A stretch of 64,000 nucleotides of DNA from Sphingobacteriaceae bacterium. GTDB lineage: Bacteria; Bacteroidota; Bacteroidia; UBA7662. The DNA lies in the NCBI GenBank assembly GCA_030682795.1, contig JAUXNJ010000008.1, forward strand, positions 18,753 to 82,752, written 5' to 3'. Positions 4,746 through 46,853 of the stretch are shown here, piece by piece (within the stretch, counting starts at the first letter, position 1; each line of letters opens with the position of its first letter). A model generated the notes under the pieces. That model saw only the letters and a list, made by a program, of their open reading frames with translations, searched no databases and was not told the origin of the DNA. The position numbers were made by a program, and so were the translations under genes.

Positions 4746-6131
4746 ATGAAAAAATGGATTGCCCTCATCCGCCAGGCCGTCAGTGGCCAGGAGCAAGACT
4801 ACACTACTGGCAGCATCCGCATGGCGATTTTTTTGCTAGCCATCCCCATGATGTTGGAGATGGTGATGGAGTCGCTATTTGCCGTGGTCGACATTTTCTT
4901 TGTAGGCAAGCTGGGCGTAGCAGCAGTGGCTACGGTGGGACTAACCGAATCGGTGATCACGGTGATTTATGCCATCTCTATCGGGCTCAGCATGGCAGCC
5001 ACCGCCATGGTGGCGCGGCGCATTGGTGAAAAGAAACCGAAGGAAGCTTCGGATACGGCTTTTCAAGCCATCGCCCTAGGAAGCATTACCGCCCTGGTGC
5101 TGGGTATTGTTGGTTACACACAGGCCGAAAACCTCCTGCGCCTAATGGGTGCCGAGGATGCAGTGATTGCTGCAGGGGTAGGCTATACCCGCATCATCTT
5201 TTTGGGAAACTTGCCCATCATGCTGCTTTTTTTAATCAACGGCGTTTTCCGGGGAGCAGGCAAGCCTGCCATTGCCATGCGTGCGCTTTGGTTGGCCAAT
5301 GGTATCAACATCCTCCTCGACCCTATATTGATTTTTGGCTTCTGGATCTTTCCCGAATTAGGCATCGAAGGCGCGGCTTGGGCTACTACCATCGGACGAT
5401 CGATGGGTGTGCTTTACCAACTCTACCATTTATTGTTGAAGCCTAGTCAAATCAGATTGACCAAAGCAAACCTGGTGTTCAAACTTTCTACCGTATGGAC
5501 GCTGGTGAAGGTGGGTGCAGGCGGTATGGGGCAGTTTTTGATCGAATCGGCAAGCTGGATTGCCTTAACCCGCATCGTGGCAACGTCGGGGAGTATTGCT
5601 GTGGCGGGCTGGACAGTGGCCATTCGGGTGGTGATTTTCACGCTTTTACCGGCCATGGGATTGGCAAATGCGGCTACTACTTTGGTGGGACAAAATCTGG
5701 GTGCCGGGCAACCCGAACGGGCCGAAGCCTCGGTATGGAAGGCGGCACTTTACAATGCCATTTTCTTGGGGAGCTGCTCGATTTTATTTATCCTCTTTGG
5801 TGACCAAATCATTGGCCTGTTTAATTCCGACCCTGGTGTTTTGCTGGTAGGGAAGGAAGCGCTTTTTGTACTTTGCCTGGGTTATGTGTTTTTCGCTTAT
5901 GGCATGGTAATCGCACAAAGTTTCAATGGCGCGGGTGACACCTTAACCCCCACCATCATCAACATCATGATGTTTTGGGTGCTAGAAATCCCCTTGGCTT
6001 GGTACATGGCCCTGCATTTGGTCTGGGGTGCTACTGGCGTATTTTGGTCGGTGGCCATGTGTCACAGTCTGCATGCCTTGGTTAGCGTCTATATTTTCAA
6101 AAAAGGCCGCTGGAAATTGGTGAAGGTTTGA
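4746..6131 (+). CDS. MATE family efflux transporter
   Basis: 461 aa with 12 predicted TM segments and an LAIPMMLE N-terminal block typical of NorM/MATE. A TAnnTTTG box at 4733-4740 lies so close to the ATG that the true start may be the internal Met at 4821. Confidence 0.8.
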   Translation: MKKWIALIRQAVSGQEQDYTTGSIRMAIFLLAIPMMLEMVMESLFAVVDIFFVGKLGVAAVATVGLTESVITVIYAISIGLSMAATAMVARRIGEKKPKEASDTAFQAIALGSITALVLGIVGYTQAENLLRLMGAEDAVIAAGVGYTRIIFLGNLPIMLLFLINGVFRGAGKPAIAMRALWLANGINILLDPILIFGFWIFPELGIEGAAWATTIGRSMGVLYQLYHLLLKPSQIRLTKANLVFKLSTVWTLVKVGAGGMGQFLIESASWIALTRIVATSGSIAVAGWTVAIRVVIFTLLPAMGLANAATTLVGQNLGAGQPERAEASVWKAALYNAIFLGSCSILFILFGDQIIGLFNSDPGVLLVGKEALFVLCLGYVFFAYGMVIAQSFNGAGDTLTPTIINIMMFWVLEIPLAWYMALHLVWGATGVFWSVAMCHSLHALVSVYIFKKGRWKLVKV

Positions 6132-6153: not shown

Positions 6154-7011
6154 ATGCAACTGAAAATCTGGCTGGTCCTTGCACTTTTCCTCCTCATTGC
6201 CTGGGTAAGCAAGCTTGTTTATGGCAAAATACAGCGTGCGGGATTGGTGGTGGTTACCTACAACATCCGTTACGACACCGCCAAGGATGGCACGAATGCC
6301 TGGCCGCATCGCAAGCGGCGTTTGATAGGCGAATTGATGAGTCACCAACCAGCCATCATTGGCATGCAAGAAGTATTACACCATCAATTGCAAGATGTCA
6401 AAGAACTACTGCCTGCACGTTTTAAGTACAGCGGCGTGGGCAGAGACGATGGTGCCAACCAGGGCGAATATGCCCCTATTTGGTACGACAGCACACTTTT
6501 CGAGCTGCAACAGCAAGGCACCTTTTGGCTGTCCGACACCCCAACAGCTCCAAGCAAAGGCTGGGATGCTGCCTTGCCGCGGATTTGCACTTGGGTTGCC
6601 TTAAAGCACCTGCGCGATGGCCGACAGTTATGGGTGTTTAATACCCATCTCGACCACCAAGGCATCGTGGCTCGTGAAAAAAGCACGGCCTTGATTGCTG
6701 AAATGGCTGCAGCCATTCCCGATCATCCGCCGGTGCTGCTGCTGGGCGACTTCAACAGCACCCCACAAGAAGCACCCCATCAGGTGCTTCAAAACGAAGG
6801 CTGGCTCGACGCCCGTGCTACCGCCGAAAAGCGGGAAGGCCCTATAGGTACCTTTCCCGATTTCGATGGCAAGCGCCCCGAAAAGCGCATCGACTTCCTC
6901 TACTACAAAAATCTCCCACCCCCGTTTATATATATCGTAGATGGTTCACCCGACCGCCAGCCTCCTTTTGCATCCGATCATTCGGCAGTGGTGGTAGGTT
7001 TTCCATGGTGA
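6154..7011 (+). CDS. endonuclease/exonuclease/phosphatase (EEP) family protein with N-terminal membrane anchor
   Basis: N-terminal hydrophobic helix. EEP blocks VVTYNIRYD, GMQEV, NTHLDH and SDHSAVV are present. Confidence 0.8.
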   Translation: MQLKIWLVLALFLLIAWVSKLVYGKIQRAGLVVVTYNIRYDTAKDGTNAWPHRKRRLIGELMSHQPAIIGMQEVLHHQLQDVKELLPARFKYSGVGRDDGANQGEYAPIWYDSTLFELQQQGTFWLSDTPTAPSKGWDAALPRICTWVALKHLRDGRQLWVFNTHLDHQGIVAREKSTALIAEMAAAIPDHPPVLLLGDFNSTPQEAPHQVLQNEGWLDARATAEKREGPIGTFPDFDGKRPEKRIDFLYYKNLPPPFIYIVDGSPDRQPPFASDHSAVVVGFPW

Positions 7012-7039
7012 TGCAAGTTGCAACGGCTGGCGTTTATTA

Positions 7040-7130
7040 GTCGGTGTTTAAACGTTTGTATACGTAAGTAAACGGTAACAAACGTTTAGCAAACGTATAC
7101 AAACGGTAACAAACGTTTAGCTCCCGAATC
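7040..7130. promoter_or_regulatory. operator-like repeat array (3x AAACGTTT palindrome, 2x GTATAC, 21-bp direct repeat) upstream of helicase gene
   Basis: AAACGTTT occurs at 7050, 7080 and 7111 (spacing 30/31 bp). The direct repeat AAACGGTAACAAACGTTTAGC occurs at 7070-7090 and 7101-7121. The inverted pair is AAACGTTTGTATACGT (7050-7065) and ACGTATACAAACGG (7093-7106). Confidence 0.5.
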
Positions 7131-7159
7131 TTAGGGCAACTGTTTTGCAATTTGCAGGC

Positions 7160-8827
7160 ATGAAACAGTTAACCCACGAGCAGCAAGCCATTCTCGCCGC
7201 AGATGGCGATTTAAAAATCAATGCCGTAGCCGGTTCCGGTAAAACGTCCACCTTGGTGGCGTATGCGAAGTCGCGACCAGCAGGCAGTAAACTACTCTAC
7301 TTGGCCTTTAATCGCACCGTACGAGAGGAGGCCGTGCAGCGTTTTGCGCAAGAAGGAATGAGCGGGGTGCGGGTAGAAACAGCGCATTCGTTGGCCTATA
7401 AAGACGTTGTGAGAAGCCGTAAACTGGAACTTACTTTTGGCTACAAAGCATACGAACTGGCACAGGTATTGGGCATCAAGAGCAAGGACCCAGAGATCAA
7501 GTACCTCTTGGCTACCCATACCCAGCGCTATTTGCAACTTTATTTAAATTCGAGTGCGCAGGCACATACCGAGTTAAATTATGCGGGTAGTTTGTTGGAC
7601 CCCAAGGCACGCTCCTTTGCCGATCGTTTTGCACAGGATTTATTGGGCTATACCACCAAGGCCTTGCAGCTTATTGAAAGCGGAGTGCTTCCCTGCGTAC
7701 ACGACTACTATTTGAAGCTTTACCAGCTTAAAAAGCCCAAACTTCGCTACGATTACTTGCTTTTTGACGAAGGTCAGGATGCGAGCAGCGTGATGCTCGA
7801 CGTTTTATTGAAGCAGTCGGCACGCAAAATCATTGTGGGCGATGTGCATCAGCAAATTTACGGCTGGCGCCAGGCGGTTAATTCACTGCAGCAGGTGCCT
7901 TTTCCAGCATACACCTTGAGCAACAGTTTCCGTTTTCCGGAAGAAATTGCCTCCCTCGCCAAAAGGGTGCTTCAATGGAAGCAATTATTGCCCCAGGCCA
8001 GTGATCCGGTAGCCTTAACAGGCTTGGGGCCGGAGAAGGGGCACATTAGGACCAGGGCTACTTTGGCGCGCTCGAATTTGTTTTTGTTGGATAAAGCCAT
8101 TCAGCTGCTACACGATCATCATTTCGAGCGCATTTGGTTTGAAGGCAATTTAGGTGCTTACACTTTTGCCTCAGATGGCACCAGTATTTTTGATGTATTG
8201 GCCTTGTTTGAGCACAAGCCTGAGCGCGTTAAGGATCCGCTATTGAAGGCCCTTGGCAGTTTTGAAAAGCTTGAAGAATATCTTGAAAAAGCCGAAGATC
8301 CTGAATTGGCCACCATTACTGAGATGGTGCGCAAACATGGCAACGAATTACCGGGCTACATCAGTGCGTTAAAAAATATGCAAGTACCAAGCGACCAAAG
8401 AGCGCAAGCAGATATGATTTTCAGCACCGTGCACCGAAGTAAGGGGCTGGAATACGATGAGGTGCAGCTCACCACCGATTTTGTGTCGGAAGACAAAATC
8501 ATTCGGGCAGTGGCCGACAACGACAAGCAAAAAGTGGCACGTTTGAATGAGGAAATTAATTTATTGTATGTAGCCATGACCCGGGCGCGCTATAATTTGC
8601 GACTTCCGATTTCACTTTGGCCGTCTGGACCCGTAACGCCTGTGCTTCCCGATGTGAGTACGGGTATGCCAGCGCGTAGGCGACGGGCGGGCATGTACAT
8701 GCGCAGCGACAAAAATGAATGGGATTGGGGTCACGGTAAAATGCAATTGGAAGAGGCCTACGACCCGTATTTGATTGAAGACTTAGAGCGTTCGATGCGT
8801 TATCCAGAAGAAGTTGCACCTCCTTGA
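7160..8827 (+). CDS. UvrD/PcrA-like superfamily-1 DNA helicase (short, ~555 aa)
   Basis: Walker A AVAGSGKTST and DEGQD (Walker B) are present, plus the UvrD_C-like block FSTVHRSKGLEYDEV. The track start 7145 is TTG; the ATG at 7160 (MKQLTHEQQAIL) is more likely. Confidence 0.8.
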   Translation: MKQLTHEQQAILAADGDLKINAVAGSGKTSTLVAYAKSRPAGSKLLYLAFNRTVREEAVQRFAQEGMSGVRVETAHSLAYKDVVRSRKLELTFGYKAYELAQVLGIKSKDPEIKYLLATHTQRYLQLYLNSSAQAHTELNYAGSLLDPKARSFADRFAQDLLGYTTKALQLIESGVLPCVHDYYLKLYQLKKPKLRYDYLLFDEGQDASSVMLDVLLKQSARKIIVGDVHQQIYGWRQAVNSLQQVPFPAYTLSNSFRFPEEIASLAKRVLQWKQLLPQASDPVALTGLGPEKGHIRTRATLARSNLFLLDKAIQLLHDHHFERIWFEGNLGAYTFASDGTSIFDVLALFEHKPERVKDPLLKALGSFEKLEEYLEKAEDPELATITEMVRKHGNELPGYISALKNMQVPSDQRAQADMIFSTVHRSKGLEYDEVQLTTDFVSEDKIIRAVADNDKQKVARLNEEINLLYVAMTRARYNLRLPISLWPSGPVTPVLPDVSTGMPARRRRAGMYMRSDKNEWDWGHGKMQLEEAYDPYLIEDLERSMRYPEEVAPP

Positions 8828-9707: not shown

Positions 9708-9715
9708 TATTTTTG
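9708..9715 (+). promoter_or_regulatory. candidate -7 box (TATTTTTG) with TTG -33 at 9686-9688 for the Rrf2-trmB operon
   Basis: Matches TAnnTTTG with a 19-nt spacer to TTG, and lies 19 nt before ATG 9734. Confidence 0.35.
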
Positions 9716-9733
9716 TCCGATTCTAGATACAGA

Positions 9734-10183
9734 ATGTTTTCAAAATCCTGCGAATACGGACTTCAGGCGATACTTTACATTGCGCTTCATGCGCGACCGG
9801 ATCGCAAAGTTGGCTTGAAAGAAATAGCCGACAACCAGGACATCCCTGCCCATTTTTTGAGCAAAATCCTGCAAATTCTCGTTAAATATAAGTTGCTGGT
9901 TTCAGTAAAGGGTCCCAACGGCGGATTTGCCCTTTACCGCAAAGCCGAGGACATTACCCTGCTCGAAGTAGTATCGGCCATCGATGGTCTTGATATTTTT
10001 GAGCGCTGCGGCATTGGGCTAAAGCATTGTGACGATGCGCATCCTTGCCCGATCCACAACAAATTCAAATTCCTCCGGGAAAGCATCCGCAACACCCTCA
10101 TGAAAGAAACATTGGCCGACCTCATTTTCGCAGTAGAAGAGGGTAAGACCTATGTGACGCTCAAGAATTTAACATCCGAATAA
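9734..10183 (+). CDS. Rrf2-family (IscR-like) transcriptional regulator with 3-Cys cluster-ligand motif
   Basis: MFSKSCEYGLQAILYIAL is an N-terminal wHTH. The motif CGIGLKHCDDAHPC resembles the IscR Fe-S ligands. The track start at 9713 is TTG and falls inside the promoter box. Confidence 0.8.
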   Translation: MFSKSCEYGLQAILYIALHARPDRKVGLKEIADNQDIPAHFLSKILQILVKYKLLVSVKGPNGGFALYRKAEDITLLEVVSAIDGLDIFERCGIGLKHCDDAHPCPIHNKFKFLRESIRNTLMKETLADLIFAVEEGKTYVTLKNLTSE

Positions 10184-11562: not shown

Positions 11563-11907
11563 ATGACAAATGGCTCAAGCAACGACTTCTACCAAAACGT
11601 TTACGAGCTAGTGCGGCTCATTCCCCCGGGCCGGGTAACGAGCTACGGCGCCATAGCCCGCTATTTGGGCAGTGCGCGCTCGAGCCGACTGGTGGGCTGG
11701 GCCATGAACGCCTCCCATACCCTGACCGATCCTGTGCCTGCACACCGGGTGGTGAACCGCATCGGCTTGCTCACCGGCAAACATTTTTTTAGCACGCCCA
11801 ACCGCATGCAAGAACTTTTAGAGGCCGAAGGTGTAGTTATACAGGAGGACCAAGTGCAGCAATTCGACCGCATTTTTTGGGATCCCGCACAGGAGTTAGC
11901 CCTATGA
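11563..11907 (+). CDS. alkyltransferase-like (ATL) protein, MGMT DNA-binding domain without nucleophilic Cys
   Basis: FYQNVYELVRLIPPGRVTSYGAIARYLG...VPAHRVVN matches the MGMT helix-turn-helix and Asn hinge, but PCHR has become PAHR. The track start 11557 is GTG; the ATG is at 11563. Confidence 0.75.
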   Translation: MTNGSSNDFYQNVYELVRLIPPGRVTSYGAIARYLGSARSSRLVGWAMNASHTLTDPVPAHRVVNRIGLLTGKHFFSTPNRMQELLEAEGVVIQEDQVQQFDRIFWDPAQELAL

Positions 11908-45370: not shown

Positions 45371-46669
45371 TTATAAACCAAAAGCCTTCTTCACTGGCTC
45401 TACCATGTCGAGCTTCTCCCAGGTGAAGAGCTCCACTTTTACGGTTTTGCTGTCGGAAGGACGGGTGCCCCAGCTGATGGTTTTTTCAACCACTTGCGGC
45501 TCGCGACCCATGTGGCCATAAGCGGCAGTTTCGCTATAAATGGGGTTCAATAACTTGAGGCGCTGGATGAGCATGCCTGGACGCATATCGAACAAACCTG
45601 CGATTTTTTCAGCAATGATACTGTCGTTGAGCTTGCGGCCCTCAGCATCTTTCACTTTAGCGGTGCCATAGGTGTTTACATACAAGCCCACCGGCTCGGC
45701 CACACCAATGGCGTAGGCCACTTGCACCAATACTTGCTCAGCAACACCCGCCGCTACCAGGTTTTTGGCAATGTGACGGGTAGCGTAGGCCGCAGAACGG
45801 TCAACTTTTGATGGATCCTTGCCCGAAAAGGCACCACCACCATGCGCACCCTTGCCACCATAAGTGTCTACAATGATTTTACGGCCAGTTAAGCCGGTAT
45901 CGCCGTGTGGACCGCCAATTACAAAGTTGCCGGTTGGGTTGATGTGGAATTTGATGGCCTCGGTGAACAAGCGCTTTACACGTACAGGCACCAATTTTTT
46001 GATGCGTGGCAGCAAATATTTATGGATATCGGCTGTAATGCGGTCTTGCATGGCCTTTTGGTCGGCCTTGTCGTTGCCCGTCTTCACAAAATCGTCGTGC
46101 TGGGTGCTGATTACAATCGCATCAATCGCCTCAGGACGGTGTTTTTCGCTGTAACGAATGGTTACCTGGCTCTTGGCGTCTGGGCGGAGGTATTTCATTA
46201 CCTTGCCTTCTTTGCGGATGGCCGCCAATTCGCGAAGTAATAAGTGGCTCAACTCCAAAGCCAAGGGCATATAGGTGTCGGTTTCGTTGGTAGCATAGCC
46301 AAACATCATGCCCTGGTCGCCAGCGCCTTGCTCTTCGGGCTTGGCCTTTTCAACGCCTTGGTTGATGTCGGGCGACTGCTCGTGAATGGCTGAAATCACA
46401 CCACAGCTGTCGGCGTCGAACATGTACTCCGACTTGGTATAACCGATTTTGCGGATGGTTTCGCGGGCAATTTTTTGCACGTCGATGTAGCCTTCGGTCT
46501 TTACTTCACCGCTTAAAACGGCCAAACCGGTGGTTACAAGCGTTTCGCAGGCTACTTTTGAATTGGGGTCTTGTGCCAAAAAGGCATCAACCAAGGCGTC
46601 AGAAATTTGGTCTGATACTTTGTCGGGATGGCCTTCTGAAACAGACTCGGAGGTAAAAAAATACGACAT
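45371..46669 (-). CDS. metK: S-adenosylmethionine synthetase
   Basis: [25 protein letters not shown] and [19 protein letters not shown] are invariant MetK blocks. Confidence 0.9.
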
Positions 46670-46853
46670 GATTCGTCAGTTTTTAAAATGTTAAACAGAA
46701 ACTGACCGCATCGAAAAGTGCCGCTGGCTTAGCAAGAAGTCTTTAGCACTTTTTTTTACGTGGTTGCAATCGATACAAATCAGTCCACAGCGGCACAAAG
46801 AAAGCAATTTAGCTTTACTTTTCAAAGCTGTTATTGGGCTATTTCTCCGCTTT
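46670..46853 (-). promoter_or_regulatory. structured 5' leader of metK (candidate riboswitch/attenuator)
   Basis: A 184-nt leader with a 9-bp long-range stem GUGCCGCUG/CAGCGGCAC followed by UUUU. The internal elements GCAACC and GUGCUAAAG are present. A second hairpin ACUGAC/GUCAGU abuts the start codon. Confidence 0.4.

Follow-up and report, generated by a model that had tools for sequence, protein, structure and literature searches.

Tandem response-regulator sites at promoters without a -35 element, such as the pho boxes of PhoB, the TT(A/T/C)ACA repeats of PhoP in B. subtilis and the TGTTA direct repeats of ArcA at 11-bp spacing, are composed of two to five or more head-to-tail repeats that are bound cooperatively on one face of the helix. 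The MraZ operator consists of direct repeats with a 10-bp period in front of the dcw cluster, and that of CtsR of heptad direct repeats; the met boxes of MetJ, the heptads of the omega repressor and the iteron arrays of ParR are sites of ribbon-helix-helix proteins. PafBC and RecA-NDp of Actinobacteria and DriD of Caulobacter govern LexA-independent damage regulons by way of activator motifs embedded in the promoter. In the 64,000-nucleotide stretch of a Sphingobacteriaceae bacterium shown above (the window), an array of phased repeats was found at 7040-7129, upstream of a helicase gene. This array probably forms the upstream half of a composite promoter that lacks a -33 element, depends on a regulator and is shared by the genes of a DNA-metabolism regulon. 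A phased transcription-factor array is a known kind of element, and the regulon appears to be undescribed. Literature searches with motif strings and topics, as well as Rfam searches, yielded no description of the motif or of its regulator, which agrees with an earlier note made from the sequence alone, whose author knew of no documented regulator for it.

Like the sites of PhoB, PhoP and ArcA, the array is built of head-to-tail repeats with a period of 10-11 bp and a variable number of units, and it abuts or replaces the -35 region, its proximal repeat occupying the place of the -33 element, with a fixed spacing to the -7 box. Unlike them, it has a unit (TTACAAACGn) that matches none of theirs, a Bacteroidota -7 promoter, up to 9-10 units and an inverted unit at its end. 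No response-regulator gene linked to the array and its promoter (together, the module) was identified among the neighbours of module loci. The elements of the module in the window are the following.

7040-7129, no strand: whole phased array with nine CpGs (CpG spacing, Tandem Repeats Finder (TRF), shuffles)
7070-7121, forward strand: five rightward-facing units, AAACGGTAAC, AAACGTTTAGC, AAACGTATAC, AAACGGTAAC and AAACGTTTAGC, with a register kept in nine orthologous lineages
7122-7129, forward strand: promoter-proximal variant unit TCCCGAAT, consensus nACCGAnT, its CCG nearly invariant in 22 promoters
7130-7147, forward strand: non-conserved spacer from the array to the -7 box (alignments)
7148-7155, forward strand: -7 box CAATTTGC, type xAnnTTGY (box type and position from PMC9723704)
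7160-8827, forward strand: gene for an FBH1-like superfamily 1 (SF1) helicase of 555 aa (Pfam UvrD-helicase/UvrD_C)

The nine CpGs of the array (7042, 7053, 7063, 7073, 7083, 7094, 7104, 7114 and 7125) follow one another in steps of 10 or 11 bp (mean 10.4 bp), and all AAACG cores therefore lie on one face of the helix. The basic unit was found to be a 10/11-bp head-to-tail repeat with the core AAACG and the consensus TTACAAACGn (TRF period 10). Seven units were identified, in the order AAACGTTTGT, ATACGTAAGT, AAACGGTAAC, AAACGTTTAGC, AAACGTATAC, AAACGGTAAC and AAACGTTTAGC, with variant units at both ends of the array (AGTCGGTG at 7040-7047 and TCCCGAAT at 7122-7129). The repeats that the earlier note had picked out were all found, namely three copies of AAACGTTT (7050-7057, 7080-7087 and 7111-7118), the 21-mer AAACGGTAACAAACGTTTAGC directly repeated at 7070-7090 and 7101-7121, and an inverted pair around GTATAC (arms 7044-7065 and 7093-7114, 82% complementary). 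A fourth copy of AAACGTTT, the only other one in the 64 kb, lies at 11595 within an alkyltransferase-like coding region. The 31-bp super-repeat is a local duplication of three units, which more distant relatives do not have.

The description of these repeats as three same-face dyads about 30 bp apart held with respect to helical phasing, but not with respect to the dyad as the unit, given that a position matrix built from 100 units shows an asymmetric direct repeat of 10/11 bp. In the consensus of the 100 units, A-C-A-A-A-C-G-n-T-T-A-C, information was highest at AAACG, moderate at TTA and almost nil after the G. Consecutive CpGs are flanked by AAA and TTT, which gives rise to the palindrome AAACGTTT, with a constraint that is nonetheless asymmetric, and it is the AC spacer that gives the units their direction. 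All units were found to face the gene, bar one inverted unit at the distal end.

Clustering and phasing were compared with those in 500 dinucleotide-preserving shuffles of the 64-kb window. None of the 500 contained three copies of AAACGTTT in 80 bp (maximum 2), six AAACG in 80 bp (maximum 4) or a chain of five AAACG in 10/11-bp phase (maximum 2), so that chance does not explain the array. No second array was identified in the 64-kb window by pattern searches, repeat searches or a search with R1, a sequence-only profile built from 22 promoters, which matched the forward strand at 7097-7157 with 48 bits.

With regard to the promoter, the sigmaA box TAnnTTTG of Flavobacterium psychrophilum and its variant TAnnTTGY both lie at -12 to -5 (PMC9723704). 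The -7 box was found in the form CAAnTTGC / GAACTTGC in every helicase promoter bearing the module and in two of three module promoters of Rpn-family nuclease genes (see below), the third of these (L234) reading TAAATTCG. Of the 28 promoters scored, 27 have 28-29 nt between the proximal CpG and the G of this box: 29 nt in all 12 ssb promoters scored and 28 nt in 14 of 15 helicase and Rpn promoters scored; at L234, where TTC replaces TTG at that position, no -7 box was scored. Unlike this spacing, the distance from the module to the ATG is not constant, with values between 33 and more than 130 nt. Counting 6 nt from the box G places the predicted start of the helicase transcript at the A of the ATG at 7160, and relative to this start the array spans -34 to -117. 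The proximal CpG (7125-7126) falls at -35/-34, the usual place of the sigmaA -33 element, and no TTG/-33 element was found at the proximal unit in the promoter alignment. With the last variant unit 28-29 bp upstream of a sigmaA-type -7 box, a leaderless helicase mRNA is predicted. Canonical TAnnTTTG boxes were identified at the window neighbours pdxJ, Rrf2 and MatE; the helicase gene has CAATTTGC, and the -7 boxes of the helicase and Rpn genes are weak.

At the orthologous site, the array was found to be kept in the window and in eleven related loci (L002, L004, L005, L007, L008, L009, L011, L132, L231, L232 and L235), with helicase identities of 93, 87, 85, 76, 68, 67, 66 and 65% at syntenic array-bearing loci, and it is retained even where the intergenic region is down to 77-98 bp. 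These arrays contain 4 to 10 units, in which the AAACG cores are kept and the spacers drift, and every step between units across nine lineages is 10 or 11 bp. The CpGs are anchored on the ATG (-35, -46, -56, -66, -77, -87 and so on) in all lineages; arrays thus grow and decay distally, leaving the promoter-proximal register undisturbed. Another 78 helicase loci of Bacteroidota, from Chitinophagaceae and others, share 42-50% identity; they have ordinary TAnnTTTG boxes whose ends lie about 6 nt upstream of the ATG, and none of the 78 has an array directly 5' of the gene. The exception among them is formed by three Ferruginibacter-type loci, in which a diverged module is situated at the head of the operon, 3.5 kb upstream.

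In the decayed units of L004, L005, L008, L009, L011 and L132, the CpG was lost by transition every time (AAACG to AAATG or AAATA). This could be due to ordinary transition bias or to deamination of methylated CpG.

The module was also found before other genes. A metagenome scan with the pattern CAAACGNNNNCAAACGNTTANCNNCCG, comprising two units and the proximal element, returned 29 stretches, 28 of which fit the module (the other, L217, being chance-like). Seventeen of the fitting stretches lie before a short SSB, four before an Rpn nuclease and three before helicase orthologues, with two more beside an IS3 insertion and two on contigs that end too soon to reveal the downstream gene. Wherever it was readable, the downstream gene lay on the strand that the module faces. 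Features outside the scan pattern were also present, namely more units upstream, the inverted end unit (T)ATCCGTTT and the -7 box at 28-29 nt.

Downstream of the module, five sequence groups in the metagenome scan: short SSB of 110-116 aa without an acidic tail
Downstream of the module, L226, L229, L230 and L234: Rpn-family PD-(D/E)XK nuclease, predicted to be leaderless like the helicase
Downstream of the module, L231, L232 and L235: helicase orthologues
Beside the module, one case in two stretches (L227 and L239): IS3 insertion

The Rpn loci and the window's clade are alike in GC content and in their tetranucleotide frequencies (r 0.90-0.93), and at least two module-controlled gene types are therefore attributed to that clade. 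Diverged modules were identified with R1 in Ferruginibacter sp. SUN106 and in two metagenome-assembled genomes of Chitinophagaceae, these modules being followed by an operon of ssb, a GxxExxY nuclease, a RecD2/Pif1-like helicase (HRDC and HTH_40) and an FBH1-like helicase. The profile further placed the module before the short ssb of a Tenacibaculum (complete genome CP115916.1, 43 bits) and before that of a Polaribacter. Short-SSB genes behind the module were found in at least seven lineages, these two genera among them, and carriers of the module belong to Flavobacteriaceae, Chitinophagaceae and the window's own clade. The pattern gave zero matches in viral contigs, plasmids and phages. Since the genes at module loci are of repair and recombination type, the link to a DNA-metabolism regulon is real, and to that extent the reading of the earlier note was borne out; its SOS/LexA part was not (see below).

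Loci L226 and L230 carry one module and Rpn gene in two upstream contexts, and the array's left edge is precisely where their sequences become identical; the module therefore moves along with gene copies. The ssb leaders of L221, L242, L158 and L213 have CTTTG(C/T)A(G/T)(T/C)GTCAA in common, 3' of the -7 box, and those of Polaribacter and Tenacibaculum contain a small hairpin, TGTCAAAACGAATTGACA. Through these shared leader elements, the short SSB may be subject to a further level of control after transcription.

In the mechanism that we propose, a putative sequence-specific DNA-binding protein would bind the units cooperatively, one protomer per unit. The units, placed head to tail at one per helical turn, would present the protomers on the same face, and the closing variant unit nCCGA would take the -33 place 28-29 bp before the -7 box. 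From this promoter-proximal unit, the bound protein would control RNA polymerase. The mode that we favour is activation by recruiting the polymerase, as at pho boxes and other tandem response-regulator sites. The helicase transcript would begin with the A of the ATG and hence be leaderless. Candidate members of the regulon are the short tail-less SSB, the FBH1-like helicase, the RecD2/Pif1-like helicase and the PD-(D/E)XK nucleases. Activation is favoured because there is one head-to-tail unit per turn, the proximal unit sits at -33 and the -7 boxes of the helicase and Rpn genes are weak.

The signal to which such an activator would respond may be DNA damage or single-stranded DNA. It is possible, as a tentative extension, that the module serves an ancient LexA-independent response of this kind in Bacteroidota, in which the putative regulator would oligomerise at one protomer per turn and switch on the tail-less SSB, the FBH1-like and Pif1/RecD2-like helicases and the PD-(D/E)XK nucleases. 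Bacteroidota would then have an equivalent of PafBC or DriD that operates alongside the non-canonical LexA system. The module resembles the PafBC and DriD promoters in that a motif fixed to a -10-type element replaces the -35 and in that helicases and nucleases are prominent in the regulon. It differs from them in being a phased array, whereas their motifs are single sites, and the WYL-domain regulators of those systems are not implicated for the module.

Control of DNA damage and recombination in Bacteroidota was tied to a non-canonical LexA only recently, and several clades are without such a LexA. The module would define a second, apparently undescribed regulon, which brings together a tail-less SSB, PD-(D/E)XK nucleases, a Pif1/RecD2-like helicase and bacterial helicases related to FBH1, an anti-recombinase of eukaryotes. 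Its presence in the cultured genera Tenacibaculum, Polaribacter and Ferruginibacter makes the regulator and the signal directly testable. It also offers an unusually clean natural case of face-of-helix promoter architecture, with a register held over 4-10 turns and growth at the distal end only.

Several points weigh against a regulon controlled by activation. The argument for activation is purely a geometric one, and the predicted transcription start is derived from a consensus. Membership of the regulon was defined by one strict pattern and a few dozen loci, and because this pattern held two units and the proximal element, the upstream architecture of the retrieved loci is partly imposed by it; the pattern had no bearing on the -7 spacing, on which gene follows or on the strand. 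No regulator gene was found to adjoin the module consistently among the neighbours of the window, ssb and Ferruginibacter loci: the Rrf2 gene is the sole syntenic regulator in the window's clade, and the neighbours of the ssb loci are unrelated to each other. Finally, a content of ssb, helicase and nuclease genes is typical of damage-derepressed regulons, and a repressor polymer over the -33 region fits equally well there.

The Rrf2-family regulator (9713-10183 in the window) is syntenic with the helicase in all members of the clade and has its own canonical promoter. No module was found at that promoter, and no link of the gene to the array was found.

In the alternative that survives best, a cooperative non-LexA repressor would polymerise on the units and, by extending over the -33 region, keep the promoter silent until a signal of DNA damage or single-stranded DNA releases it. 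We consider this rather unlikely, although it is still a serious rival, since the gene set resembles damage-derepressed genes; SOS-type sets are similar in content, with ssb and uvrD being targets of LexA in E. coli. A repressor accounts for the same anatomy and conservation as an activator does, tandem short boxes bound cooperatively are known from the met boxes of MetJ, the omega heptads and MraZ, and the core of the consensus, AAACGTTT, is a dyad. On the other hand, the array ends at -33 and never extends over the -7 box or the start, there is no embedded -33 element to be masked, the helicase and Rpn -7 boxes are weak, and the information content is asymmetric, unlike that expected for a dyad-binding dimer. 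Of the cooperative repressor operator proposed in the earlier note, a promoter-locked array of protein-binding type was supported; the geometry, with the array spanning -34 to -117 and the last unit at -33, fits an activator site better than a classical repressor operator.

Known operators with tandem short boxes differ from the module in similar respects. MraZ and CtsR operators share with it three or more short direct repeats, a 10-bp period, a position at a promoter and wide phylogenetic conservation, but have other motifs (the G-rich TGGGN and GTCAAA, respectively), target cell division and chaperones, and belong to repressors overlapping the core promoter. The boxes of MetJ, omega and ParR are likewise short and contiguous, in some cases with direct and inverted boxes mixed, and those systems form a cooperative protein filament; the core AAACGTTT of the module is a dyad like the met box AGACGTCT. 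They have a period of 7-8 bp as opposed to 10-11 bp, and omega and ParR type sites serve plasmid partition or copy control, whereas the module is chromosomal and regulon-wide. In comparison with ribbon-helix-helix boxes, the consensus contains the dyad AAACGTTT, yet its 3' half is much poorer in information than its 5' half.

It is very unlikely that the element is read by RNA polymerase itself, whether through an alternative sigma factor with nCCGA as its -35-like element or through phased A-tracts acting as an intrinsically bent, UP-like element. The fixed distance to the -7 box and the AAA/TTT runs in helical phase would be consistent with this. However, one array serves two types of -7 box, and a sigma factor has no need for 3-9 additional repeats. 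A need for bending would conserve neither the CG nor the C that precedes AAACG. A wedge model (parameters of Bolshoy et al. 1991), which reproduced the Hagerman controls GAAAATTTTC / GTTTTAAAAC, gave a bend of 46 degrees per 110 bp; this ranks only at the 73rd percentile of the window, and the values for orthologues range from 10 to 86 degrees. A sigma54 promoter, GGCAA-N5-TTGCA at 7135-7149 (GG-N10-GC at 7135-7148), was considered and rejected, as the GG is lost in L002, L005, L008 and others.

An operator of the non-canonical LexA family of Bacteroidetes, as suggested by the SOS/LexA candidate of the earlier note, is highly improbable. SOS operators of Bacteroidota, there described as poorly defined, are now known as CTAA-N5-TTAG, GGA-N5-TCC and TTAC-N5-GTAA (PMC8565304), and the known Bacteroidetes LexA motifs are absent from the array. 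No CTAA-N5-TTAG with up to one mismatch was found in 7000-7160, exact TTAC-N5-GTAA occurs nowhere in the 64-kb window, and GGA-N5-TCC is absent, with direct reading showing no GGA in 7012-7160. The module does share with the CTAA-N5-TTAG and GGA-N5-TCC boxes the same phylum and a position upstream of DNA-repair-type genes, ssb and helicases being occasional LexA members, and among paralogous regulators there are some with divergent motifs, one being TTAC-N5-GTAA, whose TTAC occurs within the unit. The published sites are, however, single 13-bp dyads and not 4-10 direct repeats (PMC8565304). Flavobacteriaceae, Chitinophagaceae and Sphingobacteriaceae have SOS regulons under these other motifs (PMC8565304), and as families with such regulons also carry the module, the two coexist and the module is a separate circuit. 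None of the core SOS genes (lexA-like, recA, umuDC, dinB, imuAB-dnaE2) was identified in the 64-kb window.

An origin with no role in transcription, as a repetitive extragenic palindromic (REP) or miniature inverted-repeat transposable element (MITE), as iterons for replication or partition, or as a structured RNA or cruciform, is equally implausible. Random placement and a REP/MITE repeat, which the earlier note had named as findings that would count against an operator, are not what was observed: the 64-kb window contains a single copy, and all further copies detected in about 780 kb of related DNA lie at orthologous or module promoters, at the fixed -7 distance. The intergenic region of the window folds well (z -4.4 to -4.6), but z ranges from -0.4 to -4.6 across lineages with differing structures, RNAalifold on the 22-promoter module alignment gave 0 consensus pairs, and Rfam searches with gathering and E-value thresholds returned chance-level matches only. 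In favour of iterons, a first viral scan (CAAACGKN{3,4}CAAACGKN{3,4}CAAACG) gave at least 120 stretches with perfect 10-12-bp iteron arrays containing CAAACG; these viral arrays are, however, perfect whole-unit repeats of unrelated elements, whereas the units of the module share the core only, its locus is housekeeping and syntenic, and plasmids, phages and viral contigs contain no match to the module pattern.

The stretches of the first viral scan (IMG/VR contigs L012-L131, at least 120) form a large class of phased iterons unrelated to the module, for example (AAACGGTGAC)4-7, or (GGACAACAAACG)3-4 followed by repeats of AAGAATGAT. A looser two-unit pattern gave 13 matches in viral contigs, approximately the number expected by chance, and none of them was a full module. 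Four IMG/VR contigs (L253, L255, L256 and L064) contain short ACTACAAACG arrays with inverted TATCCG ... CGGATA ends like those of the group A ssb promoters, without a -7 box at the module distance. These arrays may be copies on mobile elements.

A second, mirror-image module facing leftward was detected in the window with R1, which matched the minus strand at 7012-7088 with 39 bits in a search of the whole window and at 7013-7075 with 33.7 bits in a regional search. Read on the minus strand, it consists of the units CCGTTTAC, TTACGTATAC and AAACGTTTAA, then ACACCGACT, 17 nt and GCAACTTGC.

7049-7075, reverse strand: leftward-facing units CCGTTTAC, TTACGTATAC and AAACGTTTAA (R1), which are the inverted GTATAC arm
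7040-7047, reverse strand: leftward proximal variant unit CACCGACT (R1 alignment), the inverted partner of the right-hand CCGAnT end
7013-7021, reverse strand: leftward -7-like box GCAACTTGC, within the palindrome TGCAAGTTGCA (7012-7022), directly past the stop codon of the upstream gene
6154-7011, forward strand: Exo_endo_phos family gene, the upstream neighbour (Pfam domain; synteny)

The inverted GTATAC pair and the palindrome TGCAAGTTGCA after the stop codon are both explained by this leftward copy of the module. It was found to be kept in L002, L004, L005 and L007 (76-93% relatives) and to be absent from the lineages with a short intergenic region. Judging from its box, an antisense RNA would run from near 7008 into the 3' end of Exo_endo_phos. 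An open reading frame of 26 codons (MENLPPLPNDRMQKEAGGRVNHLRYI, 6926-7006, reverse strand) begins 8 nt past the box G; L002, L004 and L005 retain this frame, and L007 has lost it.

The locus is chromosomal, housekeeping and syntenic. The order of genes is MatE (4746-6131), Exo_endo_phos (6154-7011), the array, the helicase (7160-8827), pdxJ, the Rrf2 regulator and a TrmB-like methyltransferase, with rpsI, rpsB, tsf, pyrH and frr farther along in the same region. The helicase, which the earlier note had called a short UvrD-like one, does contain the Pfam domains UvrD-helicase and UvrD_C, but the closest solved structure is that of F-box DNA helicase 1 (PDB 9xzj, E 2e-43) and not UvrD (5e-7; UvrD/Rep about 1e-6). 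It is a bacterial relative of the eukaryotic F-box DNA helicase 1, without the F-box, from a family widespread in Bacteroidota. Membership of a defence system was rejected for the helicase, with PADLOC giving generic, partial, GajB-like matches only.

Downstream (3') of the helicase locus of Flavisolibacter longurius (L138, 7233-7300), seven contiguous heptads (T/C)AAAC(G/C)(T/G) were identified, a distinct repeat of period 7. Elsewhere in the window, a SAM-II riboswitch (RF01726, 51 bits) was found at 46733-46794 on the reverse strand, directly 5' of metK (45371-46669, minus strand).

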